A stretch of 59,837 bases of DNA, filler included. It is 2 parts of 2 records of this genome, joined end to end, with 100 filler letters (N's around TTAATTAATTAA, not from the genome) between each part and the next. Parts side by side here need not be neighbours in the genome. Positions count along the whole stretch, not along the records: positions 1 to 31,933 come from SRR20825019_328; 1 more part is not named here. One strand, written 5' to 3'. Shown in pieces: positions 1,000 through 31,300 of the stretch. The notes under the pieces are model-generated. The model was given only the letters and a program-made list of their open reading frames with translations. It had not been told where the DNA came from and searched no databases. The stretch's first letter is position 1. Each line of letters begins with the position of its first letter. A program made the position numbers and the translations under genes.

Positions 1000-1780
1000 T
1001 GGACGAATTCGCTTCGTCGGGCCGGGGAGCCCGTCCGGTCCGGTCATTCAGTCCGGTCGCCCGGCCTGAGCCGGAACCGGGGCGCCTCGACGCCGCGCGC
1101 TCAGGGGCGCCGCCGGGCCGGGCCCGGCCAACCAGTGGCCTGGGGGGGCCCGGCCCGGCCGGCCGCGCCGGGCCCAGTTCCGCCGCGCCGCCCGCGGGCC
1201 GCCGGGCCGCGGGCCCGCGGGCCGGGCGCCGTTCCAGTTCCGCAAGTTCCGGTTCCGACCCACACTCAACTTGACCGAGCTTAGTTGGACTGATAGTGAG
1301 TAATTCAATTAAATGTAAGTAGATCTATTGAACCATCGGTTCGCCCGATGTAATTCCCGCCCTGATGAGGATGACCCGGCGCCGGACTTTCACCCTCAGT
1401 GGCGGTCCGCGGGCCGCGGCGGCGGGCCGGTCGCCGTCCTCCCGGTCCAGCGTGGCAGTGCTGGGCACTGCCCGGCGGCGGCCGGGCCGGCCCGCCGCCG
1501 GTCCCGCCGCGCCGGCCCGTCCCGCCGCGGGCGAGGGCGTGCGGCCGGTCCGGTGCGCCCGCCCCCTGGCCGGCGCCGGCGCCGGGCGAAACAGATGGGG
1601 CGGGTCCAGGGATCCGGCCTCGTACCTGACTACTGGAGACTGGGCGGCGGCGGTGCCGGCCTCGGCGCCTTGTGATCACTGCCCGCGAGCACTGAGGCCG
1701 GGTGAGCCGAGTCGGGACCGGATGCACTCATCGCCGCCGGCCGGCCGCCGGCACTCATACTATCACTCCTCGACCGATTA
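1000..1780. promoter_or_regulatory. GC/CpG-rich island in the divergent ERV1/AKR promoter region, with a short AT-rich centre near 1285-1335
   Basis: Bases 1141-1200 contain only 4 A/T in 60, dense in GGCC/CCGG. Lies between two divergent start codons. Promoter role is inferred. Confidence 0.6.
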
Positions 1781-1874
1781 CCTACCGAACAGAGTCTGAC
1801 CATGCTTGGCAGAGCCCAGCTTTATAAAATTTGGTTTGGGCTCTTCTTGAAGTTACTAGTATTCAGTTTTCAAA

Positions 1875-3163
1875 ATGAAAAAGATGGACAAGCGAAAGTT
1901 TGGAAACACTGACCTTATGGTTACTCCAGTCTGCTTTGGGACATGGCAGTTTGCCCAAGATGCTACTTGGGGCACATACGAGGAAGAAGCCGCCATCAAG
2001 ACTGTGCATGCCGCTCTGGATTCTGGGATAAACTTCTTCGACACTGCTGAGGCTTATGGTGCTGACAATATAGCTGAAAGAATATTGGGGAAAGCGCTTG
2101 CAGTTCGTGATTGCCGTAAGGATGTTGTCATTGCAACGAAGTTTGGAAAGCACGTCGGTGAGGACCAAATAAAGTACTCTGCGGAAGATATCGAGGCTGC
2201 CCTCGAGAAGTCACTCACGGCTTTGCAAACCGACTATGTTGATTTGTATCAGGTGCACTGGTCTGGCAACATGAAAGACTCAAAGGAGACTGTGCAATGC
2301 TTGGTATGACTAGAGCTTTCACATGTGTCGAATTCTCACTTCGTCTTCAGGAGAAACTGGTGAAGAGTGGAAAGATCAAGTACTATGGAGTTTCCAACTT
2401 TGGTGTTGAACAGATGAAGGAGGTAAATGAAAAGAGAGTTTATTTGCTCGCCATTGCTCAACTTGTACCCCGCAGTTCTTGGCTGCTGGTGGCAAACCTT
2501 GTAGCCAACAACTACCATACAACCTGCTCTGGAGGGCTATTGAATATGACACCCTTCCCCAGTGCATTGAACACAACATTACCATTATGGCATACTCTCC
2601 TCTTATGCAGGTAAGTTCATTGTGTTGTCCTTGGACATGTGTTGTGTGGATCTGAATGGGATGTATCAGGGACTGCTCACTGGAAAGTTTTCTAAGGTGG
2701 AGGATGTTCCTGAAGGTCGTGCAAGATCTCGCCACTTCCATCATGTAAGCACTGGTGACTTGTTGTAGGAGTATATCTTAGTGTACTTTCGCAGTCACGC
2801 TCACCAATTTGCCGACATGGCGAGGAAGGTGCTGAGAGGGAAACGTTCGATGCCATCAAGGAGCTGAAGGCCATCGCTGCTGAATCTAGTGTTCCCATGG
2901 GTGCCATGTCACTGGCCTGGCTATTTCAACAACCCCTGGTGTCTTCTGGTATGGTGCGTGTTGAACCTGGCTTCATCCGCCTAAATCTTTTCGTAGTTAT
3001 TACTGGTGCTTCAAATGATGCCCAAATTCGTGAGAACGCCATGGCTGGCAACACTGTTCTGACTGACGATGTTGTGAAGAAATGCACCATTGCAACAGAC
3101 GTGCTGAAGGAAAAACTCGGCCCTAACCCCGATATGTGGGCCAAGAACAGCAGATATGCTTAG
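1875..3163 (+). CDS. Aldo-keto reductase (6 exons: 1875-2303, 2351-2422, 2476-2610, 2670-2744, 2795-2948, 2997-3163)
   Basis: Motifs FGTWQF, GINFFDTAEAYG, IATKFG, DYVDLYQVHW, GKIKYYGVSNF, QLPYNLL, AYSPLMQGLLTGK. Five 47-59 nt GT-AG introns restore frame. Confidence 0.95.
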
Positions 3164-3313
3164 GTGGCCCAGGACGACAAATTAAAAGTATTTCAATGAT
3201 AGGTGTAGTTTACAGTGGCCCTCGTGCCCTGTTCGAGGCAGTCCAAAATGCAATTCGAAAGGAAGGCGGACAGCAAGCATACTTCCTCTCTCCAAAGATG
3301 TCCAAAGGTTTTC

Positions 3314-3831
3314 CTAGAGACGATATCCAATTCTTGCTGCAGTGGAGGACCTGGGAGTCAAGGCGTCTGAAGAGAAGGATATGAAAAAACACTCTCAGGC
3401 AAAAAAAGACTACCTACTGGAATGATGTCCCGTTGGATCCTTCTTGGTTGAGGAGAAAGGTGAGGCCCCAGAAGACGACTTTTCTTCCTTCTAAAAGGAT
3501 AAACGAAAATTATGAGTTCAAAAGTAAACATATAGAAGAAATAACTAAAAGATATTCAGCATGTCGCGAGCGCCGTAAACCTAGACCCGACTACAATAAC
3601 GGGATAGCTGAATTACACTCGCATTTTGTATCGCCACGGAAATATCCAAGTACACCACATGAATGGATCTCATTGATGTACGCGTATAGGCGAAAGATAA
3701 AGAGATAGAAAAAAGAGCTTCAAACGAAGGCTAACTGTTACCTGTTTGGATGCGGCCAACTTGCGGGCCTCTTCGTATTCCTCTAAGTCTTCCTCCTTCA
3801 ACTCTAGTCGTGTTGGCTTACGACGAAGCAT
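3314..3831 (-). CDS. CDC26: Anaphase-promoting complex subunit CDC26/APC12, about 71 aa (exons 3831-3742, 3490-3418, 3366-3314)
   Basis: N-terminus [20 protein letters not shown] matches the CDC26 signature (human [20 protein letters not shown]). The spliced C-terminus ARIGYRL resembles human DRIGYKP. Confidence 0.9.
3559..3693 (-). ncRNA. Candidate intronic box H/ACA snoRNA (about 135 nt) in CDC26 intron 1
   Basis: Hairpin 1 (TCGCC/GGCGA base, GTACATCA/TGGTGTAC upper stem), H box ATACAA (3631-3626), hairpin 2 (GCGAGTG/CGCTCGC base, CCCG/CGGG upper stem), ACA (3564-3562). Lies in the only 251-nt intron, and both pockets are complementary to conserved rRNA segments. Confidence 0.75.
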
Positions 3832-3889
3832 ACTTGTTGCACATGGATTATGAAAGCAATTTTTTCTCCCTATTACAAGAATAGGTTGG

Positions 3890-4500
3890 AAAGCGCGCGG
3901 CCCGGGGCGTGACCAGCATGAACGGACCGGCGACCGGACGGCGCCGGTCACGGTAGGTGCTCTCGGACCGGGGAGCCGGGCACCGCGGCGGGCGGCTGCC
4001 AGGGTCCGCGCCAGCACATTCGAAATCGGGCGACGTCAAATGATGACTCCAAGATGATATGCGTAACTTCCAGACAAATCATAAAATCGATTGTGTAGGC
4101 ATTGAATACTATCAACGAATCCCGATCCCGCAGACGAGGGCAAGCAGGTCAGTCGGCCCACACGGTCCGGAGTCCAGTCATCAGCCAAGCGCATGAGTGG
4201 CACCGACTTGGCCCCGACCGCCCCACTGCCGGTCACTTCCGCCGGGATGGGGGCGCTGCGTGGTGCCGTGGCCGGCCGGCAGCCGTGTCAAGCAACCATC
4301 CACCATCTCCGGAAAACTGGGCTCTGTGCATCCGGTCAACTCGCAAGCTGACATGGTTTGTGATGTTTGCTTAGGGACTTGACCTTGACAACAGTGAGCC
4401 AGGATGCCGACCGCACGCGCTGGCTGGAGGGGTGTGGGCTTGGGGGGCTGGTGGACGGAGGGTTGCCCGAGTTTGCCGGCCCCAAAACCGCTCAACGACA
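3890..4500. promoter_or_regulatory. GC-rich island(s) in the divergent CDC26 / phosphatase promoter region
   Basis: GC-rich blocks at about 3890-4035 and 4130-4500, separated by an AT-richer spacer, between divergent starts. Confidence 0.55.
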
Positions 4501-4626
4501 CCACAGGAGCAAGCAGTGTCATTGTTATTCTTGAGAGATGTCAACGAGACAAGTCCAATGCCTCTAAGCAAGGACTGCAATAAGTTTAAGTGTGGTGTTA
4601 GGATAGTTTGATTGTAGCGAGTTAGC

Positions 4627-7003
4627 ATGAGGGTTGCCGCCTGGACTGGCTTCTGCGTGTGTATAGCCATCGCATGGACGGGCGCCACGGCCATGTTTGA
4701 GGCTCAGCCCATCGCGCGTAGGGTACAATGGAGCCCTTGCGAAATGAAGGGCTGCCTTTGGGGCGGTACGGGAATAAGCTGTGGCAGAAAAATTCCTTCC
4801 CATCACAAGAAAATGTTTCAGGATAATCTTGAAAATTACTTCAACCTTGCCGAGCTAAGTGCGGGTGATAATTTTCACAAGTCGTGCTTATGCACGATGC
4901 CCCGTATGTTCGGGTTGGGTGGAACGAGTGGCGCTAAATATAACGTAGAGACAGTGGCCCCAGTGTACTCGTTCGATAATATGCCGGCGCCCAGTGTTTA
5001 CTGTTTGGCAGCTACTAAGTTGGGTGATGCTCCCAAAGTGTGTCGTGATCCCTTTATTGAAGATGGCAAGGACAAGAAGTTCTGTCAATGCTTTGAAGTT
5101 GACCATGACAACGAGACAGACCGGCCATTTACTCGGTTACAAACTGAAATGGTCAACGACTACCTAGATCTGGGGTGTACTCACTTTGTTGGACACCAAG
5201 TTGCTGCTGAACCGAAGCATGAGATTGATGAAGTGTTAGATGTTACGGGGAAGGATGTAAGGGTTGCCATTTTGGGTGACCTCCACGGAGACTATGAGCG
5301 GACTGTGATGGCTCTGCAAATGGGAGGACTTCTTGACAAAGATGAACAGTGGAATGAAAACGAAAAGGAAACTATTCTCATTCAAACTGGGGATATCTTT
5401 GATAGAGGTGTGGATGACATGAAGTTGTTTTTGTTTTTCAATCACCTTCAGGCTGGCGGTGCGAAGATTGTAAGATTGAATGGCAACCATGAATACAATC
5501 TTCTTTCAGGAAACTGGAACTACAAAAATTTGTGGAGATGCAAGAACACGCCACCAGATTCGAGGAAACGTGCGAATTGCATCGGTGCAATTTCTCTTTC
5601 TAGCTGTAATGGAATGGCATTCAAGCAACTGATCAAGCAACCGTTTGTGAAACTTGTGAGATATGGCAAGGACAATGATTTTAAGTACATTGTTGTGGCC
5701 CATGGAGGAATTCCTCCTAAGCTGGCAGATTTTACGTTCTTTGCTGGTGTCTCGTCGATGAGATCAAAGCAGGATCGACCTGCAGTCATGGCAACTTTGA
5801 TGAATAAGTACTTCCGGGATTTATTGTTGGAGCAATGTGAAATCAATGCAGAGTACATTCGTGACTTCAACCCAAGGGTTAGCACTGATCAATTCGACAT
5901 TTCCGTGCTAAAAGGGAGGGGTAGAGTTGACATCCTTCCATCAGGGGAAAATCGGCACAAAGTGACTGACGTAAGCGAAAGTCCATTCACTTTCCGTGGT
6001 TATTTTGCGAATCAAGCAATACCTACTGAGGTGATAGATGAGGATAGACCTGGGTGCAATGAAGTCTTGAAAGCATGGACCGCATTGGGTATGATTGGTA
6101 ATACTGTGGATGAATCGATAACTTACAATGTGACTGTAGGGCTGGACGATAGTGACCTAATGGTAGTTGGACACACGGTCCTTGAGTATGGACGAGGGCA
6201 AACGTTGAGCTGCAGAGGCCGACTCCTCAGTGTGGACACTGGGTTGTCTAGGTGGATGGCCCTCCCAGCTGAGTTGGGAGGTGACAGGCTTATGCAGTAT
6301 CACAATCGCCCAGCCATTGCGTTTGTTCACCCTAGCGGTGAAATCGAGAAGAGAGTGGCATATTTTTTCAACGGGTTGGAGGAAGCTTTGGAATCATCCG
6401 TGCGAGCGAACAAGTATCAGACAATCGCGAGCAAGTTTTACTATCCAACGAATACATATGAGCCTTCCGCGGACACCGAGATTTGCTTCTATCTATCCAG
6501 TAAGTTTCTTTCTTGATTGGACTTTATTCGTACTGACTTTAAGATCAGACCGTGACGGCGGTGAGGAAGCTAATCCGCATTATTGGGCTTTCCAGGAATG
6601 TAAGGAGGCCCTCGATTCCGAAATGATGGTGGTTGGTACTGTTGAAGGAAAGGAGGCGTGGCTTAGTGAGCCCCTGTCAAAGGCATTGGAGAGTGATGAT
6701 GAACTTAGAAGGTCCGATGAACGCAAGGACAGGCTGGTATCCGATATTTTGGCAAGCATGGAGGATAAAGAAAGAAAGGGTACAGAAAAAGTGGATACTG
6801 ATAAGGACAGGATGGAGTTGATATCGGATGTTTTGAGCGACATTGACCAAGAGAATGCCAAGAAAGACAAGCTGGTAAGGGAACTTTTTGGTGACGACGA
6901 AGAAGGAAGCGACAAACGGGGAGTCGATGAAGGAGGAGTCGACGATGGAGAAGACGATAGAGGAAATGGTGCAAAGGAAGAAACAATGCTATCCGGCCAT
7001 TGA
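4627..7003 (+). CDS. Secreted Shewanella-like (Shelph/SLP) PPP metallophosphatase with Cys-rich N-terminal region and acidic C-terminal tail (exons 4627-6499, 6549-7003)
   Basis: Hydrophobic N-terminus (MRVAAWTGFCVCIAIAWTGATA). Motifs GDLHG, GDIFDRG, GNHE, HGG, GHT and the Shelph-type VDTG. A 49-nt intron (6500-6548, branch TACTGAC) joins the acidic ORF in frame. Confidence 0.85.
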
Positions 7004-7379
7004 TTCAAGATGGCGTTCCACGGAGAGATGCGAACTTTCTTATCACGACTGCTAGAATTGAAGATTATGGTCGCTTCGGGAGTATGGATGCCTTGGGAGA
7101 AGGTCAATGGTGCACCTTCTAGTCTTTCACGACAGTGTGGCTATTGAGAGCTTGGATGGTCGTGGGTAGCTTAGATGATCCTAGGCTGCTTTGGCCCGGC
7201 TGCCGGTAATCATCGTGAATGGCGACGAGCCCTGCGAACTTACTTAAAGCGGAATCTGCATTTCCATGAACTTTGAAACCAATCACTGGCTTGACCTTGA
7301 CTAATTATGATAATTATTTTTAGAAACTATTGCTAGAGTAGTTAGCCGTTCACTGCTACTAGCTAGTCACTGATGAGAG

Positions 7380-7650
7380 TTCACGCCCGGCCCTACGGCC
7401 CTTCGGCGACCGGACGACACTTGATGGATCACCGTGCGCCGGGAGACCGCCGGCACGTGTCGACCGGCCCACCCCCCGTGGCACGTGCCCGCCGCGCGCG
7501 GGGCGGGGCCAGCGCGCGGCGGGGCCCGCGGCGCACCTCGGTGGCCTGAGTGACCCCGGCGCCATTGACCTGCCCGGGGCCGGGACCCCCCCGGTTGGGC
7601 CGGCGCGGCGTACGGCTGGACCGGCGTCATCCGTCGGGTCGCACCAGGGT
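7380..7650. promoter_or_regulatory. GC-rich island upstream of the 7718 gene
   Basis: GC-rich block ending about 70 nt before ATG 7718. Confidence 0.55.
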
Positions 7651-7717
7651 CGTTTGGTGTACTCTAGTGTATATATGCGAGTCAAGACTCTTTTCAAACT
7701 ATTTTAACAGACTTAAA

Positions 7718-9550
7718 ATGGACGAGGAGGCGCTGAAAATCCTTAAAGAGGCAGGAATTCGTCAAGAAGACTTGGTTGATTTCACAATATTTAACTCGGA
7801 GCATGATGAGAATATCATCACACTTAGTGAGAAGAAGGTATATGCAAGACAAGAGACGAGCCCTAACGATTGACACGTTTTGCTGAAGGTAGAGAGTCTC
7901 ATCAATGAACTAATCGCCAAGGATGACAAGGTTGTGGATGACTTCATCAACAATAACGACTACCTAGGCTATGAGGAAAACTTGAAGTATGGGCAATTTA
8001 TCAACAAGACCGACAAAAGGCCAACTTACAAGGTTGAAACGAAGGTTCACCAACCGAGAAAGGTGTCTATTGTAAACAACCCCTTCGCACCGGAAGCTGA
8101 AGGTTTGCTGTACAGGTTGAGCGCAAAATATGGGAAATACCTCCTTCCCACCTTAGCGAAAATCGGAAAAATCTTCGAGAGTACAAGGAGTGGGTTGATT
8201 ATTGGTAGGGTTCTGGGGGTCCTGAAACTTATGTGTGGAATACAGAAAGTCTCATGTCGGTCATGACAAGGAATGGTCTGAAGCTCTCGGTAGGTGTTCA
8301 GGTTTCACGATAACGAAGAACAAAAATAACCCTTGGATAGCGAAACGGATGCAAGAGGAGGCTGAGAATGGCATTCCAAAGCTTCAGCAAATCTTCGAAA
8401 AGGCGTTTTCCGATATGAAATATGACGCGCACGAAATAATTGACGAAATCATTAATATCACTGATGAGAATCCGGACGGGTACAGCATTCAAATGTTCCA
8501 GGAGGTAAGCAGAACTGTAGTCAAGTGGTGCGACACCAACCATTGCAATTGCCAGAATGCGCAATCTTGGGCCGATATCGGAGAGGCGATCAAGCATCGG
8601 GAGGATCTTAAAAGAGAGTTAAAACAACTCCGCCATGAACTAAAGCATGTTAAGGAGCTCTTGCAGATGAAAATTGAGTATGAACGACTCTGGGCTCCAC
8701 GAATATCGAAGAAGAAAGGGTATGTAAGATTGGTTCAAGATGCTGTAATTCTGATGTGGGTGTAGTGTCATGATGTTGAAAGATGCCGATGACAAGGTTC
8801 CATTAAATGACGCCATGAAGTTTGCTGACGCAATGCTGGGTGATGACTGGGACAACCTCCGAGGTAACAGGAAATTTACTTTCGCATGTCCATGCTTACT
8901 CTGTATGAATAGGGGCCCCTATTGTAGATATGGAAGCGGAAAGGCGCAGAATAATGGAATTGAAAGAGGAAGAGGCACTGCAGAAACAAGCTCAGCTCAA
9001 TAAGAGCAAAATAGGAATGCCGAGGAGACATGGACGGCTAGCATTACAATCAAGCCACCAAGAAGAGCCAGCTGAAGAAGAAACGTGAGCTGGCTGATAC
9101 TGATATTAACACCATCATCTGACGATGTCTTTACTAGAGTTTCAGTGATATCCATTCCTGAAATGCAATTAGAAGTTGACGATATGGAAAAGCGAGAAGC
9201 AGCTCTCGTGCAAGAGTTGTCAACTCAAACCAAAGTTGTGAAGAAGCTAATCGACGTACATCCACGGAAAGAGATCATTTGCTATGAAGGTAGAAAACAT
9301 GCGATGAATTTATTGTTCTCTTCTGAGGGGTAACGCAGGCAAGCCTTACCACAAGGTAATTGAGAGAGAATGGGCAATATCCACTCAAGTTCCGCTGCCC
9401 AATATTGATCCTTCGACGGTTCCACCCGTGAAATTGGTATTCAAAGATGCAGATACTTATCCCGAAGCACCGCCAGCGATCCCAGAAGGCAGCACTGACA
9501 CTCAGAACGCGACAGAAATTGAGAATGTCGATGTCGAGCAATCAGCTTAA
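7718..9550 (+). CDS. Multi-exon hypothetical protein with charged/coiled-coil segments
   Basis: A chain of ORF pieces (MDEEALKILKEAG.., VESLINELIAK.., AKRMQEEAENG.., ..ENVDVEQSA*) linked by roughly 50-nt GT-AG introns, e.g. 7838-7888 and 8290-8340. Some junctions are uncertain and no family is recognised. Confidence 0.65.
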
Positions 9551-9573
9551 GCATCTACTCGAGCTGTATCTCT

Positions 9574-13487: not shown

Positions 13488-13599
13488 CAGCGAGCCACTG
13501 CCTGCATTATAACATTACGTATATTCCGATACATCAACAGCAAAAGAATTGCGCAGTATGAAATCACCAAGCGGCGGGTTGTCTGCACTGTACGACCTC

Positions 13600-14100
13600 A
13601 TGGACGAGGCCCGGCTACCGCTCGCCCAGCCCACTCGCGTAGAGCCTCTCGGTGACCAGAACCACAAATGACGATCTGGCCCGTTCAGTGCCGATGCCGG
13701 GACGGTGCGCCCGCGTCATTGGCTTGCCGCGCCGGGCCGGGGGGGCCGCCGGCCGGGCGCCGGGCAGCGTCCGTGGAGTGGCGCCAGTCGTGTCGCCGCC
13801 GGCGCCGGCGCGCCAGCACTGATCAGTCCGCCGGTACCGGCGAACTGGGCGTAGGATGTACGTTCGATTGACATGAATCAATGGGTCATCTGAAAGTTTT
13901 TTGGAGATGACAGTCCGGTCATCACCGCCCCCTCACCCGACCCACAGGACGCGGGGCCGACTGATGACCACCCTCAGAAGGGTGAGGGGCGGACGAGGCC
14001 CCCTCATCACTCTCATCTGACAGGGTCGGTTTTAGCATCGATCAGCCTGGGCCACCCGGCGGGCCAATTGCCGCTGCTGTCAACACGAACTTTCCGGCGT
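13600..14100. promoter_or_regulatory. GC-rich island in the divergent kinase / EF-hand gene promoter region
   Basis: GC-rich blocks between divergent ATGs 13487 and 14246. Confidence 0.55.
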
Positions 14101-15460: not shown

Positions 15461-15501
15461 ATTTGTATACGTTTCAACTTATGCAAAGAAAAGCTTTCGT
15501 T

Positions 15502-17606: not shown

Positions 17607-17679
17607 TGCATCTGATACCGTGCTTTACATGTTGAGGGATTTATACGACACAGGAACTGTACGCCTCCTCAGCACTGAA

Positions 17680-17900
17680 TGTGTGGCCGGCCAACGGCTG
17701 ACTTGGAGAAGCAAGTGAGTCAAGCACCGGCCGGCCGGCCAACATATCTCCAGCAGGCCATTGATTCAGCTCTCTCAGGCGTGGTGGTACATGCCAGTTT
17801 CGAAAGCATGCTCTAGTACTCGTTAGCCCGTCAACCGTGGCCGGCCCCCCGGTGGCCGCGGCGGAGCCGCGGCCGGCCGCACTACTCCGGGTCGGTCCCA
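17680..17900. promoter_or_regulatory. GC-rich island upstream of the 17606 gene
   Basis: GGCCGG-rich block just 5' of ATG 17606. Confidence 0.5.
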
Positions 17901-18525
17901 CCGGAATTCAAAGACCGGCAACATTCCAACTTGCTATGGTAATTTGTACTGTAAATAGCGGTTTTCATTTTATATCCAAAGTTTTGAGTTAATTATGAAA
18001 TGTTTGCATTTTGATTAAGGAAAGTTTCGTGTAAGGTATTACAATACCAAAACATTTCATACATGCCTTCGACCCCATTGTTTCGTAGACATCTTGACAG
18101 GATTAGCTACTTGATTGGTTAAAAATAGATCACCTCCTAGTTATTGATAAATGTTATCTCTGAGCAACGTTAGGGCTTGCTCGAGAAGGTGGTTGATGGA
18201 CTCGGGAGTAGCAGCGTCGGCCTGCGTATCCGCAGGCGGGGGCGTGGTCATGGCTGGTGCATCATCTGTGTCGCGAGCTGACACTGTTCTTTCTGCTGCG
18301 TAGGTCCGAGTGATTCCACCACATCAGGGATAACACTGCGAGTAGTGTGTAGGTCGTGAATGCTTATCTCCCTGCCGGCCTGCTTGCTGGTAGGGGTGGG
18401 CAGATCCAAACTGCTCCTCCTCCCGCATACTCCTCCCTTCCACACAACCCGACGATACCGACTTCGTGTCCCTTGCTTTTATATATGAAGGTATAACACA
18501 TTACAATATCCATAACCCGGGAATC

Positions 18526-19238
18526 ATGAAGGTTACGGCTCTTATCTTGCTTGGCCTTGTTGCTTACAGCACTGCTCTTAATATCCGTCAGGCCGACGGT
18601 GCTGCCCCTGCCGCCGGTAAGGATGCCACCGAGCCCAACGATGTCGATGACAACACCCCCCCCGAGCTTGGTAGGTTTATCGGCTTGAACTTTCTTAGCT
18701 GAGCTTATAACGGTATGCTTCTCTGCAGTCACCCTGAAGTGCTACGCTAATGTTGAGATTTCCGCTGGCTCCAAGCCTAACGTTGGTTCCTCCACCTGGT
18801 GGACCGCCCAGTACCCCACCATGCAGGACCTCGTGAAGATGTGCTCTACTGATGAGACCAAGGTTGACCTCGAGCTCTCCGAGCAGTACAAGAAGCTTAT
18901 GATGGCTGCTGGCGTTACCTCCTACCCCATCCCCCGCGGCAAGACCCTCACCTTCGTCCAGGGTGACAAGGATGGACCTTCCTTCTCCATTCCTTTCTTC
19001 AAGTCTGAGGTCCAGAACCTTCCGGGAACTAAGGTATGTGGCTCTCTTATTGTGATGGTTACTATGGAGTCTGACTAGGTTTTTTTTTCAGTTTGATGGT
19101 ATTCTTCACTGCGCCAAGACCTGGGCGGATACCCACCTTCAGCTCAAGTACTGCCACGCCACCAACGAGCCCGTTGCCGCCGGTGCTGCTGCCCCCGCTG
19201 CCGCCCCTGGTGGTGCCAAGGCCCCCGTCAACCCGTAA
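18526..19238 (+). CDS. Small secreted protein, about 198 aa, 4 Cys, Ala/Pro-rich ends (exons 18526-18670, 18729-19033, 19092-19238)
   Basis: Signal peptide MKVTALILLGLVAYSTA. Two 58-nt introns restore frame. Marked codon bias (AAG, GAG, C/T-ending codons). TATATA at about 18478-18486. Confidence 0.85.
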
Positions 19239-19382
19239 TTGGTTGGATGTGTACAATCATAAACATCTTTAGAATCATGTTCTTTCGTATGCATGCTTTT
19301 TCATCAGTGGTCTTGTTGCTGCGTTACTGTGGCGCTCATTTCGTCTCACTATTCAAAGTGAAAGTCGGAGCGTCTTCTGTGG

Positions 19383-22153
19383 TTATTGACTTGGTAGTGG
19401 TTTACTGAAGCGCTGGCCCGGGGCGGTCTCATGATTGGATCCCGGAGACACTGTTCAAGCTTCAGTGGTCAAACGAAACTAGGGTAGTCCAAGTTACATT
19501 TCTGAGGAGAGACGCCGTAGTTTCTTGCCGGAGAGTTCCAACAGCGCTGCTGTTAGGTATCAAGGAGTAGATAATCGACTACAAATGGCAACAACTACAG
19601 GAAGTCGACGATAACCCAGGCCTCCATCGATGAAGATGACATCATGGTTGTGGTTGCCTCTGTCGTCCTTGGGCAAGGACAGACCCGAGAACAATGGAGT
19701 CGAAAGGGCCATGGACGTACCCAGTATCCTGTCGAGCTCTTGATGACTCATCCAACGAATGAGATTCACTTTATTTGATGAATAATACAGAATCGTTCAC
19801 AACTTGCAGTGAAAAGTGAAAATCTCAGCAGTCACAGTGATCTGAGGATTTCGGGAAGAGAAGATGAGATATGGTATCTCGATCCCTACTCGACAATTTT
19901 TCAGATTTTGTTCCCTTCTCATTCATTCAGCTTTGCGTGGCTCTACGCCGACCTGCTCCTCGCCGCGCCATGTCTATCTTCTCCTCTGCGGCTGCTTTCA
20001 AGGTTTCAATAATGTACTTTGGATCCGTAGAATTGTCCTCCATTTCAGGCACCAAGCCAGTGTGCTTCACAAATTTGTTGACGTCATTGACCTGTGCGCC
20101 ATGCCACAAGCAACATCAGAAGTCATATACATGCACTCATGTGATGCTACTTACCACACTTCTTGCCTTTTCAAGAGCCTTTCGAGCAAGATCCCCAATA
20201 TGCGTTCCCTGAAAAAAGATGAGGGGGACAACTAGAATGTATACTAATCACCTACTCCATTAATAGCCTTTTCCGTTTCACTGAAGGAAAGCTCTTCTCC
20301 AGGACGATGGGGCATAGGAAATCCGGAACTCTTTCCATCAAAGACTGGTGGTAGATCTCGATGTGTGGGCTGAACAGAACTTGGAGATGATGTCGTTATC
20401 AGCTGGATTGGAAAGTAAGAATTGAACTAAAGATAGGAGCGAGTAGAACGGATCATCACATACTTCCACGCGCATATTGAAAGGGGAAGGAGACTGGTGG
20501 CTTCTTTCAAGCGTAACAGGGAACATATGTGGCGATGGAGTCCTTCCCTTTGGCAAAGAAACTCGGGACAAGTTTTGCGATGAAGATTGAAGCTTGACAG
20601 ATCTGTTGAAGTGTTCGTTGATGAGCAATCTGATTTTCCGGAGGCGAGGAAGCATACCTGTCTTTCACTTTAAGCCAATCCTCATCAAACACCATTCGAA
20701 AGCACACGGACTCTGCGCCACTATCTCGTCGTGTTTCTTCGAGAAACCATGAATCCGACCGAATGGCCCTGCCATTTCCTAAGCCTACCCCTCCCATTAT
20801 TGAATGCTCGCCAACAGGAAGCTTTGGCAAGGACAGCTGCATCAAGGTTAGTCAAAATATTGCACATGATTCATATCATTACCGGAATTCGAGGCTTATC
20901 CCCAAAACGAGGAGTTGACGAGTTGAAAAGACTGTCCGTAGATCCCATCATCCCGAGGTTTTTCAGAGCATTGGGAGTGTAGGTGTTGGAATTAGAGAGT
21001 TTCGATGACCCTGGTGTTCCAGCTTGAAAACCCTGATTTTGGCTGTTTTGTCGCTTCATGGATCGTGTGATCATCCGAGAAACCTTCTTGTCCATAACTA
21101 GAGCGTATCTTATTCAGCACCCAAAGCCACTCGAACCACAGCGTGCACACCTGTCTTGGACCTAGCAAGGATATCTTCGGATATGACTTTCTCACGATCG
21201 CCTTCTTTCAATTCAAGGAAGGTTGGTCGTTTTACTGCGGCGGATACTCTCAACAACGCGACAACCGATTGGATCGACAAGATACTCACGCCTGCCTGGA
21301 TTCACAAAGTGCCCATCATATCTTTCGCCCTCATGAAAGTAGGCTCCAAGCCCACTGATCTCATCTCTACAAAACCCCCCTATATAGCAAGAGTCTGGTC
21401 CCCACACATATCGACCTAGACCGTGCTTCATGTTGGATTGGATTTGACCTTCGAAAAAGTTCTGGTTGGCAAATACTATGGTAGCATGACCATGGCGCCG
21501 ATCTAAAATAGTTGCTGTTAGTCATTTCGCCACTAGTTCACTCAAAACTGATACCATATGTCCATGATCCCATATACACGGTTCCATCAGGCCATTTGTA
21601 GACACCCACACCCTCCCTGCTATCATTCTCCCATTGACCCATGTAAACAGCCCCACTGGGATACAGGCACCGGCCATAGCCGTGTCTTAAACCTTCCTTC
21701 CACATCCCGTCGTACATCATCCTGAAAACTGAAGTTTAGCACAAGGCCTAGCTAGACTGTGGCGACCCGTACCCGTCATGGTATATGCATACTCCTTTGC
21801 CTTCACGCAAGTCTCGATCATGCTGCCCAAGATACATGTCGCCAGTGTTCCAGATGCAGAGACCAGACCCGTGGCGAACCTAGTTACGGAGGGGTTACAT
21901 AACTCACCTCAAATGCACCATACAGTGACTTGTATACCTGAATTTTTTCATACATCGTTCCCCAGGTGTGCACTTCACCCCAATACTGCGCACTGCCATC
22001 ATCAAACGACGCCCCGTCACGCCATTTGCCCTCTCCCCAGAACTTTTCCTTGGTGCTGCTCTTCGATAGACTTCCAAGAATGTGGTCTACTGGAGAAAAG
22101 GTCTCATCCCTATAACCGGGATAAACACCCAAGTCTACTTCAACAACTGGCAT
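19383..22153 (-). CDS. Multi-exon MORN-repeat protein (both ends approximate)
   Basis: MORN repeats YDGMWKEGLRHGYGRCLYPSGAVYMGQWENDSREGVGVYKWPDGTVYMGSW and MKHGLG. Further minus-strand ORF pieces are separated by short introns. Confidence 0.7.
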
Positions 22154-22329
22154 TTCCGCGCTGAGTAGGACTGAAGCTACTATCACCAGACTTGACTATA
22201 CACCTTAAACACTTAGTCGGAAGCCCAGTTATGTAGCACACTCAGCCTTAAAGCTGTGCTCATGGTGTGATGGCGAATGCACATCACTCAAGCTACCAAA
22301 CCCAAAAGATTGTCGCGAGTATCACTGCA

Positions 22330-23060
22330 CCGGCGGACACTCACCGTGTCAGGCGGTGAGTGCTCCCCAATGGACGGGCGACGGTGTTCACGCCGTGATA
22401 CCTCCTTCGCGCCGGCGCCGGAGCGATGGCTCGGTCGCCGGCGCTGTGGCATTGACCGGGGCAGCCAGCCCGCCGTGAACGGTCGTCCCTCCCCGCGCCC
22501 GGCCGGTGTCTTGAGTGGGAGGAGAGCATTCAGGGCTCCATCAGTGCCGGCGGCCGCCCGGCAGGCCCGCGGGATGGCCGTGTTGACTTAAGTTGACAGC
22601 AATCTCGCGTAATCTCAAATAGGACGGGAGTATCGCGGGTTTCTAATTTCCGAGTTCGGCCACGAGCCGGCGGCCGGGCTTCGTGGCCAGTAGGCCGGCG
22701 AGGCGGGGCGGCCCGCGGCGGCCGGGGCACGGACCCGGGCCGGCCCCGCGGGCCGGCGGCGGCGGGCCGGCGCGGCTCCACTACGCCCACGGCGGGCCTC
22801 AGAGCGGGTCCCGCAGGGGCACCGGCCGGGCCGGGGCCGAGGCCGCCGCTCGCGGGCCGCCCGCGGCCCGGCCGCGGCGCCCGCCGCGTGGAGCGGTCGG
22901 AGGCCGAGTTGGGACCCGTCCAGGCACCTCACTGATGGCTACGGGTGGCGAGCGGCGTGGTCTGGACCGGACGTCTGGCCGGTCTTGGGGCCACCGCGGC
23001 CTCCGCCCGCGAGGCCGCGGCGCTCGAGGGACCGCGCGTTCAGTTCGCCAGTCCTGTTCG
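22330..23060. promoter_or_regulatory. GC-rich island in the divergent MORN / calcineurin B promoter region
   Basis: Very GC-rich blocks with a short AT-richer centre near 22585-22650. Confidence 0.6.
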
Positions 23061-23156
23061 GGCCGCATCTTTGCCAGCTCACCACAAATAACGCACCCGT
23101 GCGAGTAGAAGGATTTGACTAGAGAAACCTACACCTACCCGCAAAGTCACAGCACC

Positions 23157-23991: not shown

Positions 23992-25390
23992 TCATGCTTT
24001 TGCTCGAGCAGCAGTAATTTTTGCATCGAAAGCGTCAAGTTCCTTCATCATGTCCTGTATTTCGGATGTATTGTATGGACTCGGTGAATTGGGTTTTCTC
24101 AATCTTGCCGAGGCCGCTTGAGACTTGGTGCTGGCAAGTCCACCCATAGTGCTGCTATTCTCATGGTTCTTGGAGGAATAGCGGAGTGATTCAGTTGCCA
24201 TAGTTGTTGCAGTCATGTGCCTGCTTCTCCGAAAGTGGTCGTTGGCAACATTTCCAACCATGCTATCCTCCATCGCTGAGTTTGCGCCCGGCATTGTCGT
24301 AGTCTTTGCAGCAATGGGAACTTCGACCTGCAATAATCGAAGGTCGTCTCAGTAACTGTTACAGAGTTGACACCACATCTTTCTTACCATTGGGGGTACA
24401 TGGCTAACTGCATGGCTGTACTTCATCTTCCGCTCATTCCACTCACGCTCGGTGAGCTCATTCTTGAACTTATATCGCTTTTGCTCCCTTTTCTGCAGTA
24501 GAGTTGTCTTTCGAACTTGCCGGCTTTCTAGCAGGTCACCAACTCTAGCAGTCTCCAGTCTTGATCTCACATCTTTTTCCAGTTGCCTTGCCTCCCGATT
24601 TTTCATTTCGATTTCCGCAAAAGTTTTGTCCTTTGTTAATGCCAAGGAGTAGTCTTGGGTGTGTGATACTGTGCGGGGCTGTAACATCGTGACATCTCTA
24701 TAGAATACTGGCTCGATTCTGGTCATGCTGCCCGACAGACGATAAGCACATATTTCGAAGCGATTGTACCGATAACTTACGCTGAGGATGGGCGGCCTAG
24801 CTTTTTCGTCTGTACCTGTCCATGAGCAGTCTTTGTCCTGAGCGTTGCAGACTGTGGTCTTTTGCGGGTGGTTTTCACTTCAACTCCTTGAAGTGAAGTT
24901 TCCGTGTCTCCTTCCTTCTTCAGTATCCCCCCTTGAGTGCCAAGCATTTGCGAACTTGCCGTTGCACCGTCTACTCGATTGGTTACACCATGCCTGGTGC
25001 TGCTTTGGCTGTAGTCGTAAAAGAACTCGTCCTCTGAACGCTTTGGTGGTTGGTACGCTCGCAAACCCATCTTAACGTATTCCTCGTCATCTCCCACAAC
25101 TCTTCCGAGGTATTTCTCGGGTCTTTCCCTATCTCTATAGAAGTCGAACCTTAATCCCCAGTCATGCTCAAACTCTGCGATATCGGCCATAACTTGGTGG
25201 CTGGAGAGAGACGACATCAGCAACACAAGCCTCTGCGGTTCTTCCATACGTACTGCTCAAGTTCTCTCTGAAACACTTGCTTCTTCTTCTTCATCAATTT
25301 ATCTAACTGGCGGGCTTCCTTGTGCGTCCTCAGTCCACCTCTTAGAGTATACTCAGGAGGAATCATGTCCAAACTAAACTCCTCGGCCAT
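23992..25390 (-). CDS. Multi-exon hypothetical protein (basic/coiled-coil), with a 46-nt 5'UTR intron at 25397-25442
   Basis: MAEEFSLDMIPPEY.. joined by short introns to ORFs 24777-25247, 24349-24726 and 23992-24333. No family recognised. Confidence 0.65.
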
Positions 25391-25469
25391 ACTTTTCTGT
25401 GTGAGCAGTGTTTCGGATGTGTAGTGATGTCCGGTGACTTACCTTTATGGGAAGAAAATGGAAGAGGAG

Positions 25470-26540
25470 TCACCGGACTGCCAGGGCGGCTGGGTTCGGC
25501 AGGCCCCTGTAAGTGTGACCCACAGTGAACGACCGCACGACAGTCGTGTCCGGCGGAAAATCACTCACTGACGACAACCCCGGCCCTGCCGTAGCGGGGG
25601 GACGTGACGGCCCGGCGGCCGGCGGCCCAGTGTCCCTGAGGGGTTTCCGCCGAGCCCGGCGGCCGCCGCGGGAGTCTGCCGTCTGACTCACCACTCGCCC
25701 CGCCGGCCCGGCCGGGGGCCCAGGTCGGCGCAGGCCAGCATCTGTCGCGGGCCCCTGTCGCGGGCCCCTATGCCGGCCGCCTGAGCCCGCGCCGGCCGGC
25801 GGCCCCCAGGCGAGTCGCCGCTCACTGCCGGCTGGCCGGCCGCCGCCGGCCTGCGCGGCCGGCTTGGGGGGGAGTGACTCTGATGAGCGGCCACTGACCG
25901 GCACCCCATGCCGGAGGCTGGCCGTGTCCGGCGGGCTGCGCGGACGGGAACCGCTGGTTGGCGCCCGGGCGCCGGCCAACTCGGAAGGCGGCCTTTGGGG
26001 ACCACCCGGAGCGGGCGTCCCCGGCGGATTTCAAACCTGACTGCCTTGCTGACCAAACGTTTGGCCCCCAAGCCTGAACCGGGGACCGATGGAAGCGCCT
26101 TGGCACCCCGGCCCGGCGTTTGATTTGTTCTCCGTTGTCTCGTTGTTGGACATGTGTAAATCAGGCCGAGGAGGCCTCTCATGACCAAACGCCCTCACCG
26201 AAAGCCCGCGTGTGTGCCGAGGGCCGCAGTGGCAGCCGTCGGATGCGGCCTATCTATCCAATGCACGCCCGGTCAACTCATCATCCCGGAGCGACCCCCG
26301 CCGCCCGGCGAGCGGCAGCGGAGCCCGCGGCCGGGGGCGGCACACCAGGTCCCATCGTCTCAGTCTGAACGTCCTCGGCCGCCGGCGGAGCCTCGCGGCG
26401 CTCTAGTCAGTCACCGGTGTCCCCAAGCGAGCGCTAAACCGGGACCGCTGTGGGTCGCTCGGTCCCCCTTCCGCCGCATACTGCGGCCCTGCCGTGGGCT
26501 GTCACCACGTGTCGGCCCTGAGACCTTGGTGCGGCGACCA
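25470..26540. promoter_or_regulatory. Longest GC-rich island, in the divergent hypothetical / SK channel promoter region
   Basis: About 1 kb of GGCC/CCGG-rich sequence between divergent ATGs. Confidence 0.6.
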
Positions 26541-26624
26541 CCGGCTAACCCACTATTAACACATACTATTTAAGACTGTTTAGGCGGACAGTCCAAGCAG
26601 AGTGGCTGAGCGGCTTCGTGGAAG

Positions 26625-28930: not shown

Positions 28931-28977
28931 AATACAGACTTTTGGGACATCTTGAGTTTACAAAATCAAAATGTGCT

Positions 28978-30859
28978 TTAGATCCCGCCAAGGATAGCGG
29001 CAAAGAGCTTGACCAAACGCCAGGACGACGGGTGAGTCATGAATGCAGTAAGCCTGCGGTTGGTCTTAAGGTGGAGAGCACCGTTGGGAGGGAGCCGCTG
29101 CGAGGCAAGATACTCAAATGGAGCCGTCAGAACTTGACGCTCAGGAGAGGAAATCATCATTGCGTTGTGAACCTTGCCAAGCCCCGACTGGATGTCCTCA
29201 AGCGAATGGCCAGGGAATGCTCCCCAAGGCGCACAAGAGTATATCGCACCGAAGCCCCCCCAAATATTGATACCAAGGCTTCCAACCTTGAAAGACTGGG
29301 CGATTTTCTCGAATTCTTCAGCATTGTCCTTCTTTGTCTTGTCATCAATGATGATGGTACCAGTCAGTGTCCCCTGGATTAACGACGATTAATGAAATGC
29401 AAATACAAAAAATTACACTTCATACCCAAATCTTATCATTGGCGACTTCAACGGCCTTCTTCAAAAAGTCCATGGGCCCAGATCCTTCGGGAAGAGTCAG
29501 GGGCATCTCAGTCAGAACACTGCAGAAAGCCTCGTTTTGGGTTGCGTAGTGAGTCTCGTCAATTCCAATCTTGAAAATGCGATCAAACTGATCATTCAGT
29601 TTGCTGTCAATCTTTGGGGCTTCCACGACATCTCCATCATCAACATGCTCGCGGTGGGCCTTCCACATACGCTCTGAGTTGGGGTAGTACGTGCGGACAG
29701 CAGGATACTTGCCCAAGAAATACCTCACACGCTCCAAGAAGCGCTCACGCTAACCATGTCAAAGAATGTTAGGTACAGTGCGCACAATTCACAAGAATGG
29801 ACACATACTTGCGGCCAGGACGCATCGGTAATAATGACCTGAGGAGAGGCACAGATGTGTCCAGCATTGGCCATCTTGCAACACACTAAGTTCTCGGCTT
29901 GCTGGTCGAGCTGCTTATCGGTCCACTTGGCGGGGGTTATCAAGAAGGTGTTGACAGATCCAAGCTCAGCTTCCACCTCCTTGCTGTACTTCTTGCAGCA
30001 AGTCTCCATGTTATTCTTCTGCTCCTTGGGATCGCCCCACACAATACGGTTCACTGAGTGGTGTGATCCAGTGAGAAGCAACCCGTTGGATTCTTCAACC
30101 TTGAGGAGAGCCTGACCTACAGACACGTCTCCGGTAAAGCTAGCCACATAACCTGCAATGACACTTAGGACTCAGCAGTCGAAGAGGAGAGTTCTTGTTT
30201 ACCTCCTTCAACAAGAGGACCCAAAACCTTCTCGATGATGGGAAGGGTCTTCTCGTTGACAGGATTGGCCTTCATGAGGCAAACCTGGTTCTCCACAAAG
30301 AGCGTGGTGAGAACGTCACCAGCCGACTCAAAGTTTCCTAAAAATAGAATCAATACGAATCAAACAGGGAACTCTGAACCACAACACCCATACCAGCAGA
30401 GAGGATAGTCTTCACACCGGCTTCCTTCTTAGTGGGATCAAAGGTTTCGACGTCCTTACCGGGCTCAACCCAAGTCTCAACTTCAAGACCACCAGAAAAA
30501 GCCTTAAAAAGACCAGTATAAGGAAACACCTTAGCGGCTTTTTGATCACCAATAGAGCGAGTGGCCGGCTGCATTGCCTTGCCAGTTTTCACAAAGGACT
30601 CATATGTGTCAATGAGGAAGGTGACAAAAAGTCCCATCATCACTGGACCAAGGAGAAGAGCTTCCGCCTGGAGGTGAGGAATCTCAGGACCGTACGAACG
30701 CTGTTCGCACATGGCTTCACGCCACTCTTCCCCATGCTTCTCAAGGTTCGTCCTAATGGTCTTGAGAATATCAAGGCGTTCGCCATAGCTTTTAGCGGCC
30801 CACTCCTCCTTCTTGGCAACAGTGAGTCTAGCTTTTTCTTCCACACTAAGAGATGGCAT
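28978..30859 (-). CDS. Aldehyde dehydrogenase family protein (multi-exon)
   Basis: Motifs SAGNF (across intron 30338-30393), MKANPVN, LLTGS, catalytic Glu EAELGSVN, catalytic Cys NAGHICASPQ, EAFCSVL. Confidence 0.88.
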
Positions 30860-30959
30860 TGTCGGGTGTTATTTCATCGTTTGATGACCTTGTCATATCT
30901 AACTATAACAGCAGTGAAAGGCACAATGCCGGTCAACTCGAAGAAATTGATAACTAGAC

Positions 30960-31300
30960 CAACGGAGCCTGGAAAAGGCTGCGGCGAAACAAAGGACGAA
31001 CCGCCGTGACGGTGTTGCCGGGACACGGTTCATTGGCCGGTATCACCCTAGCGGGCCCGGCTGACGCATCCGAATCACTGAAGGATCCCTTGCCACCGGA
31101 TCCCTCCAGAAAGGTCGGCCGTGCCGACCCGGGGGCCGGGTGCCGACCCAGCCCGGCGGCCCGTAACTTCCAAGTTCCGCGAGGCCCATCACGACTCCGC
31201 CGGCTCAAAGTGTCAAGAGTCGCAGGCGGGTGACGACACGGGCCCGACCGGACCTCCGGGCTGATCAAGCTCGGGTCGACCCAGTCTACAACCCGAACTC
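30960..31300. promoter_or_regulatory. GC-rich island upstream of the ALDH gene
   Basis: GC-rich block just 5' of ATG 30859. Confidence 0.5.

Follow-up and report, generated by a model that had tools for sequence, protein, structure and literature searches.

GC-rich, CCGG-dense islands upstream of genes in a compact protist contig: possible counterparts of CpG islands that lie outside the mapped transcript starts

Extremely GC-rich blocks interrupt an otherwise very compact protist contig, and the question is whether they form a promoter system of the CpG-island kind. The window, i.e., the whole stretch of DNA analysed (59,837 nucleotides), consists of two joined contigs: a eukaryotic contig from a protist (~32 kb) and a Bacteroidota contig at bases 32034-59837. 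The joint between them is artificial (31934..32033, N44-TTAATTAATTAA-N44). A composition scan of the window found no GC blocks of the island kind in the Bacteroidota contig; the islands end at 31.3 kb because this contig starts past the N joint. The sample is one 31.9-kb contig of the protist, with eight internal islands and four mapped starts. The gene map was built from coding potential, Pfam matches, and splice joints in the cDNA-like contigs of runs X1 and X2, in which 15 listed introns (GT..AG or CT..AC) are spliced out. Introns are 47-59 nt long and 3' ends abut; 21.6% of the compact contig is taken by gaps upstream of genes.

The islands are distinct in composition. The initial annotation had listed nine GGCC/CCGG-dense islands, and their existence was confirmed: as delimited there, they have 63.3-87.1% GC, versus 47.0% in the rest of the eukaryotic contig (27,335 bp). 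The claimed 56/60 G+C at 1141-1200 is correct, and the same islands were found again by an independent threshold scan (100-bp GC of at least 0.65). The eight internal islands measure 221-1071 bp, with 63.3-79.0% GC and a CpG observed/expected ratio (o/e) of 0.90-1.11; the 70-bp island at the contig start has a CpG o/e of 0.73. Within islands, 60-bp GC peaks exceed 90% (peaking at 90-97%), and the CCGG plus GGCC density is 3.3-8.6 per 100 bp, versus 0.49 elsewhere. The 7.2 kb of 5' gaps contain 161 of the 203 CCGG sites of the contig. Outside the islands, 200-bp windows have a mean GC of 0.471 ± 0.041 (maximum 0.60), and the cDNA-confirmed introns have 39% GC overall. The boundaries are step-like, with the GC change completed within 40-80 bp, and the island DNA is strand-symmetric and of low complexity. 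CpG o/e is 1.04 in islands, whereas exons have 0.72 and introns 0.73; GpC is 1.0 in all of them. The compositional CpG-island definition of Gardiner-Garden and Frommer reportedly asks for at least 200 bp, G+C of at least 50%, and CpG o/e of at least 0.6; all eight internal islands qualify under it.

The contig opens within an island (1..124), with a C18 run and then 87% GC over 1-70, located 3' of gene A, whose stop codon is at 200-202. Between the divergent genes A (Erv1, - strand) and B (aldo-keto reductase, + strand), the GC scan and Pfam placed an island at 967..1798, with GC blocks at 1000-1255 and 1375-1780 and an AT-richer spacer at 1256-1374 (45% GC). One low-depth X1 contig overlaps part of this first island up to 1508, and then continues into unlike sequence. 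Three further divergent pairs have the same arrangement: C (CDC26, -) and D (metallophosphoesterase, +), island 3865..4522, spacer 4018-4130 (42% GC); F (kinase-like, -) and G (ABP34-like actin bundler, +), island 13560..14081, spacer 13849-13911 (41% GC); and J (MORN, -) and K (EF-hand, +), island 22312..23112, spacer 22584-22650 (43% GC), where 60-bp lines reach 93% GC. The GC scan found a weak and short island between H (-) and I (+) (17660..17946), and the largest island, between the divergent L (-) and M (+) (25457..26564), dips only weakly, to 56% GC, at 26030-26160. The tandem gap from D to E contains a single-block island (7353..7686), ~80 bp past the last base of the D cDNA contig (7271). 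The last island (30962..31300) is located 5' of gene N (ALDH-like, -; ATG 30859), with neighbour sequence at 31318-31933. The idea that divergent pairs often have two blocks split by an AT-richer spacer, counted over the six divergent pairs with known partners, is clear in four (central spacers of 63-119 bp, 41-45% GC) and weak in two, where the dips have 53% and 56% GC.

The placement of the islands follows gene 5' ends. An island is present in all eight gaps that border one or more gene 5' ends, whereas none is present in the six convergent gaps (Fisher p = 3.3e-4). The eight gaps comprise six divergent pairs, one tandem gap (D to E), and the N/O gap, which was counted via the 5' end of gene N. 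The claim that internal islands lie 5' of genes was thus upheld. The claim that they avoid tail-to-tail junctions agrees with the 0/6 count, but the convergent gaps measure 0, 23, 41, 104, 127, and 688 bp. Because five of the six are 127 bp or shorter, the avoidance is nearly uninformative; it is mostly absence of room, and depends on one junction. This only long junction, between I and J (19239..19926; 688 bp), has 45.3% GC, a maximum 100-bp GC of 0.56, and no island. The placement also bears on a possible assembly artefact, for instance chimeric joins caused by GC-rich reads from a different organism, which might be suspected from the contig start within an island at the C18 run, and from the window itself, a concatenation of unrelated contigs. 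Such joins would not match 8/8 gene 5' sides and 0/6 3' junctions, nor would they halt 31-137 bp short of cDNA ends that were assembled independently, and blocks of this kind are missing from the neighbouring bacterial contig. The likelihood of an artefact is almost negligible.

The islands are not copies of one repeat. In the all-vs-all island alignment, which the initial annotation had set as a refuting check, they did not behave as one TE family: the best inter-island match was 30 nt at 90% (295 non-self HSPs, nine islands), and a TE or repeat family was rejected. The inter-island alignments have no shared termini or alignable core, and the AT-richer spacers have at most 11 nt in common. 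A micro- or minisatellite array was also rejected, with only weak short arrays (scores 30-59, up to 67 bp, 1.9-12.6 copies) within islands of 220-1100 bp. Preferential insertion of a GC-rich mobile element, satellite, or minisatellite upstream of genes would fit the low complexity of the islands, their weak tandem repeats (period 5-16), and their many short palindromes. However, such palindromes are expected in a two-letter alphabet, and the missing alignable core largely refutes this explanation, which is highly improbable. A coding reading was rejected from the 3-base periodicity, which is 0.3-2.1x in islands versus 9-30x in exons. Pfam matches were found for none of 17 island and contig-end ORFs, and the islands gave no Rfam or tRNA match.

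Four starts were mapped by cDNA contigs that end in the template-switch oligo, recognised from the primer table in PMC8579666. They are gene B at 1858 (+; both runs; ATG 1875; lying 80 bp outside its island), gene C at 3844 (-; ATG 3831; 31 bp outside), gene D at 4614 (+; ATG 4627; 100 bp outside), and gene G at 14228 (+; both runs; ATG 14246; 137 bp outside). None of the four is inside an island; all lie 31-137 bp outside, in AT-richer sequence, with 5' UTRs of 13-18 nt to the first ATG. The cDNA contigs of two more genes, F (~13504, without a shown oligo tag) and H (17609), end 67 bp and 50 bp outside, respectively. Canonical TATA boxes are suitably placed at four genes, of which only B has a mapped start: TATAAA at 1823..1828 (+), 35 nt upstream of the start of B; TATATA at 7670, at the end of the D to E island, for gene E (ATG 7718); TATAAA at 17640-17645 (-), upstream of H; and TATATA at 18480, upstream of the ATG of gene I at 18526. 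The oligo letters also occur at four internal places (5720, 6985, 12210, and 16050; one run each), so an oligo-tagged end alone is not proof of a start; the assignment relies on tagged ends that agree with the ATG and TATA geometry. The ATG of gene K (23157) is only ~45 bp from its island edge, and its start may be at or inside the island.

The cDNA contigs of X1 and X2 leave the islands uncovered, bar one low-depth X1 contig on part of an island, and searches turned up no relative. The islands are untranscribed DNA upstream of genes, located between divergent starts or between a gene 3' end and the next core promoter. The suggestion of a CpG-island-like promoter system therefore stands in part: the islands are promoter-side, non-repetitive, undepleted in CpG, and within the compositional definition, but with 0/4 starts inside they are not TSS-containing CpG-island promoters of the vertebrate kind. 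The new point is that the starts lie outside, so that the islands appear as upstream spacers. Bidirectional promoters are defined by TSS pairs less than 1 kb apart. The C and D starts (3844 and 4614, both oligo-tagged) are 770 bp apart and qualify; the F and G ends (~13504 and 14228) are ~724 bp apart, the F end being a cDNA contig end. The spacing of the other divergent pairs was judged from ATGs only.

In the islands, CCGG-core words are over-represented in comparison with 30-bp block shuffles, such as CCGGC (159 versus 67.7) and ACCGGAC (10 versus 0.8; present in 7/8 islands). All eight copies of GTCCGGTC in the contig are inside islands, in six of the eight. Three of them form one local cluster (1033..1058), which leaves the motif statistics thin; the other copies are at 3932, 7408, 13913, 22965, and 31246, and the copies have no fixed distance to starts. 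The A/T bases are clustered into short patches, with 17 S-only runs of at least 20 nt versus 7.9 ± 1.9, the longest being up to 52 nt.

These features might arise as a by-product, with no function of their own, of GC-biased gene conversion, or of break repair with the same bias, in open chromatin upstream of promoters, if meiotic or other breaks gather at the promoter side, as in organisms without PRDM9. The promoter-side placement in 8/8 gaps, the extreme W->S end state seen in the longest S-only runs, the strand symmetry, and the lack of sequence conservation among islands are all in line with this explanation. Also in its favour, the abstracts of PMC11703093 and PMC10369914 describe hotspots at promoter-like features that are stable in many lineages, and the title of a yeast preprint (10.1101/119768) ties divergently transcribed intergenic regions to GC-richness. 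The step-like edges (40-80 bp) and the excess of CCGG-core words over local-composition shuffles speak against it. Conversion tracts span hundreds of bp, and tracts of such length should blur edges. Counted in steps of 50 codons from the ATG, pooled GC3 stays flat (0.52, 0.51, 0.53, and 0.50), which speaks against an ordinary spill-over from gene conversion; of the three genes checked by cDNA (B, D, and H), D alone has a 5' GC3 excess. The 15 confirmed introns have 33-48% GC, including those located 270-550 bp from island edges. The proposal of gene conversion at promoters thus lacks support as stated, as the predicted spill-over of GC into genes is absent. As a by-product explanation, it is possible but on balance unlikely.

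The islands might also be a passive refuge: CpG decay linked to methylation and C->T mutation associated with transcription would lower the G+C of transcription units, and only untranscribed spacer would keep, or drift to, a high-GC neutral state. On both sides, island edges do follow the ends of transcripts: four to six genes at their 5' ends, and D at its 3' end. Exons and introns alike combine CpG o/e of 0.72-0.73 with TpG/CpA of 1.20-1.21, versus ~1.0 in islands, and the confirmed introns have a sense-strand skew (G>C, +0.11; T>A, -0.26), although part of the T excess is the splice-signal pyrimidine. The CpG depletion is mild; from the sequence it would be compatible with gene-body methylation, but not diagnostic of it, and CpG o/e near 0.72 is also known in genomes without cytosine methylation. 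By estimate, a fall in CpG o/e from 1.0 to 0.73 costs a percent or two of G+C, not 25-40 points. An unusual neutral equilibrium of 75-90% GC would also be required, and mutation is AT-biased in most organisms. Moreover, the central spacers and the 50-130 bp between island and start are untranscribed, yet AT-richer. A passive refuge is quite improbable.

The preferred reading, with a probability of roughly 0.45, is that the islands are a displaced-upstream counterpart of vertebrate CpG islands, i.e., a shared upstream platform, probably unmethylated, that would serve one core promoter or two. Putative binding factors might read CCGG-core words such as GTCCGGTC; alternatively, the sharp GC/AT contrast might fix nucleosome seats and keep the AT-richer core promoter of ~50-130 bp open. 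The composition would be maintained because constraint acts on the base content and the density of motifs, not on exact sequence, which would account for both the non-aligning islands and their short local duplications. Against this reading, a compositional domain is explicable without any function. It is unlikely, though conceivable, that these are independent, non-vertebrate CpG-island-like domains, in which all untranscribed upstream DNA of this protist lineage has been driven to 75-95% GC as CCGG-dense filler flanking the starts, hard-wiring promoter chromatin as an unmethylated platform or nucleosome barrier with a fixed AT-richer core promoter of 50-130 bp open. If so, the surviving A/T-containing patches (GTCCGGTC, CACTGA, and CTGATGA) would mark true transcription-factor sites, a built-in footprint of the regulatory code.

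In comparison with known systems, the islands resemble vertebrate CpG (HpaII-tiny-fragment) islands in size (0.2-1.1 kb), GC content (63-79%), CpG o/e of ~1 amid CpG-depleted surroundings, CCGG density, and location at gene 5' sides, often between divergent genes. In vertebrates, the TSS is inside the CpG island, and most islands lack a TATA box, whereas the protist starts lie outside the island in AT-richer sequence, with a TATA box at gene B. The protist islands are also lower in complexity, and its bulk CpG depletion is mild (0.72-0.74), unlike the vertebrate bulk o/e of ~0.2. With 5' cDNA ends under 1 kb from each other, the divergent pairs C/D and F/G recall bidirectional promoters; however, each protist gene appears to own an AT-richer core promoter at the outer edge, and the interval is a long GC block, often with a central AT-richer spacer, instead of one compact promoter. 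The GC peaks at promoter-like hotspots of recombination in species lacking PRDM9 (birds, canids, and yeast), as described in the abstracts and title cited above, share the stable promoter position and raised GC, whereas in the protist the contrast is much stronger, has step-like edges, and is not accompanied by a GC3 or intron gradient into genes. In ctenophores, according to PMC12221973, the methylation-sensitive zinc-finger proteins CTEP1/2 occupy GC-rich motif sites that are free of methylation, at promoters and loop anchors. These sites are discrete motifs, unlike the kilobase-scale compositional blocks of the protist. By analogy, such CpG-containing, GC-rich words at promoters, read only in the unmethylated state, may serve as a model for the CCGG-core words of the protist islands.

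The analyzed stretch is two molecules rather than one, and treating it as a single molecule would mislead. Positions 31934-32033 (N44, TTAATTAATTAA, N44) are an artificial joint between a eukaryotic contig (1-31933), whose genes have about 47% GC and short GT-AG introns, and a Bacteroidota contig (32034-59837). Pfam analysis of the latter identified arabinofuranosidases, araA, an FGGY kinase, an RND efflux pump, ECF sigma/FecR, and SusC/SusD. Its arabinan/arabinose cluster comprises GH51-like and GH127 arabinofuranosidases, the FGGY kinase, a class II aldolase/epimerase, AraA, an aldose epimerase, and an SSF transporter; the efflux pump genes form an operon, and two Usp genes and one ECF sigma/FecR/SusC/SusD set are also present. 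This contig could come from a bacterium that is prey or companion of the eukaryote, or could have been mis-binned. The GC-rich islands of the eukaryotic contig stop at 31.3 kb because the DNA beyond the joint is bacterial. The nearest genome, G001, had no matches to 200-20000; thus, the 43% of words it shares fit the bacterial contig, which is about 46% of the window.

The eukaryotic genes were mapped using coding potential, Pfam, and the splice joints of cDNA-like contigs. The dynamic-programming model of gene B was wrong in detail, and cDNA joints were substituted wherever present; the models of E, J, K, L, M, and N are approximate. The map contains 14 genes, A to N, with alternating strands (D and E are both on the plus strand). 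The plus-strand genes are B (1875-3163, aldo-keto reductase), D (4627-7003, metallophosphoesterase), E (7718 to about 9550), G (14246-15460, ABP34-like), I (18526-19238, secreted), K (23157 to about 23864, EF-hand), and M (26625 to about 29382). The minus-strand genes are A (200-858, Erv1), C (3314-3831, CDC26), F (9574-13487, kinase-like), H (15502-17600), J (about 19927-22153, MORN), L (about 23992-25390), and N (about 28978-30859, ALDH-like). The last gene of the contig (31318-31933) carries no strand assignment. Convergent M and N, both with approximate models only, show an apparent 3' overlap at 28978-29382. Another apparent overlap (9301-9573) lies between E and F, where the F cDNA contig extends to 9301 and the E coding sequence, known from its model only, ends near 9550. 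The protein of gene I is small and looks secreted, its N-terminus resembling a signal peptide; the GC3 of this gene (0.6-0.8) is much above that of its neighbours, and it has a canonical TATATA box. On its side the island is weak, and the upstream 17920-18160 is AT-rich.

Islands were found in all eight 5' gaps, the intergenic gaps with at least one gene 5' end (458-1234 bp, median 860), and in none of the six convergent gaps between two 3' ends (Fisher p = 3.3e-4). The initial annotation described this as avoidance of tail-to-tail junctions. The count is true, but it is nearly uninformative, because the convergent gaps span 0-688 bp (median 72) and only I-J (688 bp, 45.3% GC) is roomy enough for an island. 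A fairer wording is that free DNA is scarce at 3' ends, where there is almost none, and that 21.6% of the contig lies in 5' gaps, which are GC-rich.

A blind threshold scan recovered the islands listed in the initial annotation, and a recount gave its 56/60 G+C at 1141-1200. The nine islands (eight internal and one at the contig start) have 63.3-87.1% GC and 3.3-8.6 CCGG+GGCC per 100 bp, versus 47.0% and 0.49 in the 27,335 bp of the eukaryotic contig outside them. The 200-bp windows outside the islands have a GC of 0.471 +- 0.041, and none is above 0.60. Of the 203 CCGG sites of the contig, 161 fall within the 5' gaps, which total 7,166 bp. The CpG o/e is 0.90-1.11 in the internal islands and 0.73 in the 70-bp contig-start island; pooled, the internal islands reach 1.04, versus 0.74 outside. 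They are also strand-symmetric (C = 0.349, G = 0.347). On the values measured here, all eight have the composition of CpG islands in the classical definition. The first bases of the eukaryotic contig (1-26) already belong to an island and include 18 consecutive C. This suggests that the most GC-rich tracts cause breaks in the assembly, where islands may thus be cut short or under-represented.

Other identities were considered. The islands do not align to each other as one transposable element family; the best inter-island HSP is 30 nt at 90%, and the remainder of the 295 non-self HSPs are short palindromes and low-complexity words. A repeat reading is nearly excluded, and so is an artefact, which is slightly less probable still. 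Satellite arrays were rejected, as Tandem Repeats Finder showed only weak arrays (period 5-16). A coding role was rejected too: 3-base periodicity is 0.3-2.1x the median in islands versus 9-30x in exons. None of the 17 open frames of the islands and contig end had a Pfam match, and no Rfam families or tRNAs were found anywhere in the eukaryotic contig.

Contigs of two public sequencing runs, whose kind is unrecorded, were aligned to 1-20000. Of the 15 listed joints in these contigs, 14 omit 47-59 nt and one omits 251 nt, with GT..AG or CT..AC ends, so that the contigs of both runs behave as cDNA. The introns they support (2303-16106) are tiny and uniform, 14 of 15 being 47-59 nt; the exception is the 251-nt intron of the CDC26 gene (3491-3741). 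Over the covered part of these 20 kb, the cDNA contigs and the window differ at 21 single bases between 1910 and 17342, mostly by transitions, which indicates that the strain or allele behind the cDNA contigs differs from the assembled one. Gene E and almost all of the island sequence lie outside the cover, and uncovered stretches were not counted as evidence. One low-depth contig covers island 1 (967..1798, between A and B) up to 1508, and then diverges.

Several contig ends continue into the letters of the SMART template-switch oligo, as given in the primer table of PMC8579666; this oligo is added at the RNA 5' end. Tagged ends were located for gene B at 1858 (plus strand, both runs), 17 nt ahead of the first ATG and 80 bp outside the nearest island edge; for C at 3844 (minus strand), 13 nt upstream and 31 bp outside; for D at 4614 (plus strand), 13 nt upstream and 100 bp outside; and for G at 14228 (plus strand, both runs), 18 nt upstream and 137 bp outside. 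Untagged contig ends of F (about 13504) and H (17609) lie 67 and 50 bp outside. Four internal sites (5720, 6985, 12210, and 16050) likewise show the oligo letters, in one run each, so the tag alone does not prove a start. The start sites are inferred because the tagged ends agree with the ATG and TATA geometry. A TATAAA lies 35 nt upstream of the gene B start, and in E, H, and I a TATAAA or TATATA precedes the ATG by 45-50 nt; on our reading of the sequence, the AT-rich matches at the TATA position of C, D, and G are all weaker. The gene D cDNA contig reaches 7271, and the next island, in the D-E gap, starts at 7353. Since cDNA ends lie outside the islands on both sides, the islands coincide with the untranscribed interval; they are therefore upstream of the core promoters, not across them. 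A CpG-island promoter with its start inside the island was not borne out (0/4 tagged starts).

Within the islands, 40-bp windows peak at 90-97% GC. The proposed two-block structure of divergent islands holds in part: a central AT-richer spacer (63-119 bp, 41-45% GC) is clear in four of six, and the other two have only weak dips (53% and 56%). The longest match common to the spacers is 11 nt, and TTGAC is not significantly enriched in them (4 vs 1.7). The tandem island (D-E gap, 7353..7686) is undivided. Clustering of the A/T bases leaves 17 S-only runs of at least 20 nt (longest 52 nt) versus 7.9 +- 1.9 in block shuffles. Against local-composition shuffles, words with a CCGG core are over-represented (CCGGC 159 vs 67.7; CCGGCC 75 vs 26.3; ACCGGAC 10 vs 0.8, in seven of eight islands), as are the A/T-bearing words CACTGA (11 vs 1.3) and TCATCA (9 vs 0.8). 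All eight contig copies of GTCCGGTC lie within islands, six of the eight carrying it, with three copies in one local cluster; no fixed distance from these copies to starts was found. G-quadruplex motifs are not enriched in islands (1 vs 3.2 expected). The hammerhead-like word CTGATGAG has three of six copies in 5' gaps, without support from the Rfam search. The 12-mer CTTGACCTTGAC has two copies, both in 5' gaps but not in the GC core: one (4378-4389) separates the C/D island from the start of D, and the other (7290-7301) lies just ahead of the D-E island.

The 15 cDNA-supported introns have 39.4% GC (33-48% each), with sense-strand skews of G over C (+0.11) and T over A (-0.26). Two non-coding classes only a few hundred bp apart, introns and islands, thus differ by 25-40 points of GC. 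Exons and modelled introns are alike in CpG o/e (0.72-0.73), TpG/CpA (1.20-1.21), and GpC (about 1.0). From the ATG onward, pooled GC3 stays level (0.52, 0.51, 0.53, 0.50, ...); among cDNA-checked genes, a 5' excess occurs only in D (0.68 to 0.44), and none in B or H. These data bear on two alternatives. The main one invokes promoter-side hotspots of GC-biased conversion or repair, a process documented for species without PRDM9 (PMC11703093, PMC10369914). In its ordinary form it is at odds with the step-like island edges, the flat GC3, and the AT-rich introns nearby; very short tracts could still fit, and we regard it as rather unlikely. The other alternative is that untranscribed spacers passively keep a high GC. 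The match of island edges to transcript ends agrees with such a refuge, but the size of the GC gap is unaccounted for, and core promoters and central spacers are untranscribed yet AT-richer; this explanation is improbable.

Database hits for the encoded proteins are scattered among amoebozoans, choanoflagellates, and a cnidarian. The best matches are 54% (Salpingoeca macrocollata) and 49% (a sea anemone) for Erv1, 40% (Squamamoeba japonica, with Diaphanoeca, Mastigella, and Clydonella also matched) for the gene G exon, and 25% identity for gene D. A protein atlas search returned weak coiled-coil look-alikes only, and no related locus was found in genome or metagenome contigs, so there is no orthologous island to compare. 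In the collections searched, the eukaryote lacks a close relative, and it is placed no closer than an amorphean-like protist. Narrow keyword searches of the literature did not find islands of this kind described in a protist; they may still be published, and this absence is weak evidence of novelty.

On this one 31.9-kb contig, the islands are real, non-repetitive, non-coding, strand-symmetric, and CpG-undepleted domains, which fill the untranscribed DNA 5' of the core promoters; the latter are AT-richer, and several of them have canonical TATA boxes. Our tentative reading (probability about 0.45) is that they might be counterparts of CpG (HpaII-tiny-fragment) islands, shifted upstream. They would probably form an unmethylated platform, where CCGG-reading factors may bind or nucleosomes may be organised around the core promoter; constraint would act on composition and motif density, not on the exact sequence. 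Because genes, introns, and 3' ends are extremely compact, spending 22% on spacers calls for explanation, either by function or by a strong process of biased conversion or repair. Cis-regulatory words would be readable from the islands with unusual clarity, provided that the A/T patches are binding sites. A protist in which every gene is preceded by CpG-undepleted blocks of 65-80% GC on the kilobase scale, with start sites just beyond them, would be a natural experiment, in which the effects of extreme GC/CpG density on chromatin, methylation, and recombination might be separated from start-site needs. Protist promoters are usually described as AT-rich, and CpG islands are usually seen as a vertebrate solution linked to global methylation. 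The islands described here are alike in composition to the vertebrate type; however, none of the four tagged transcription starts lies within an island.
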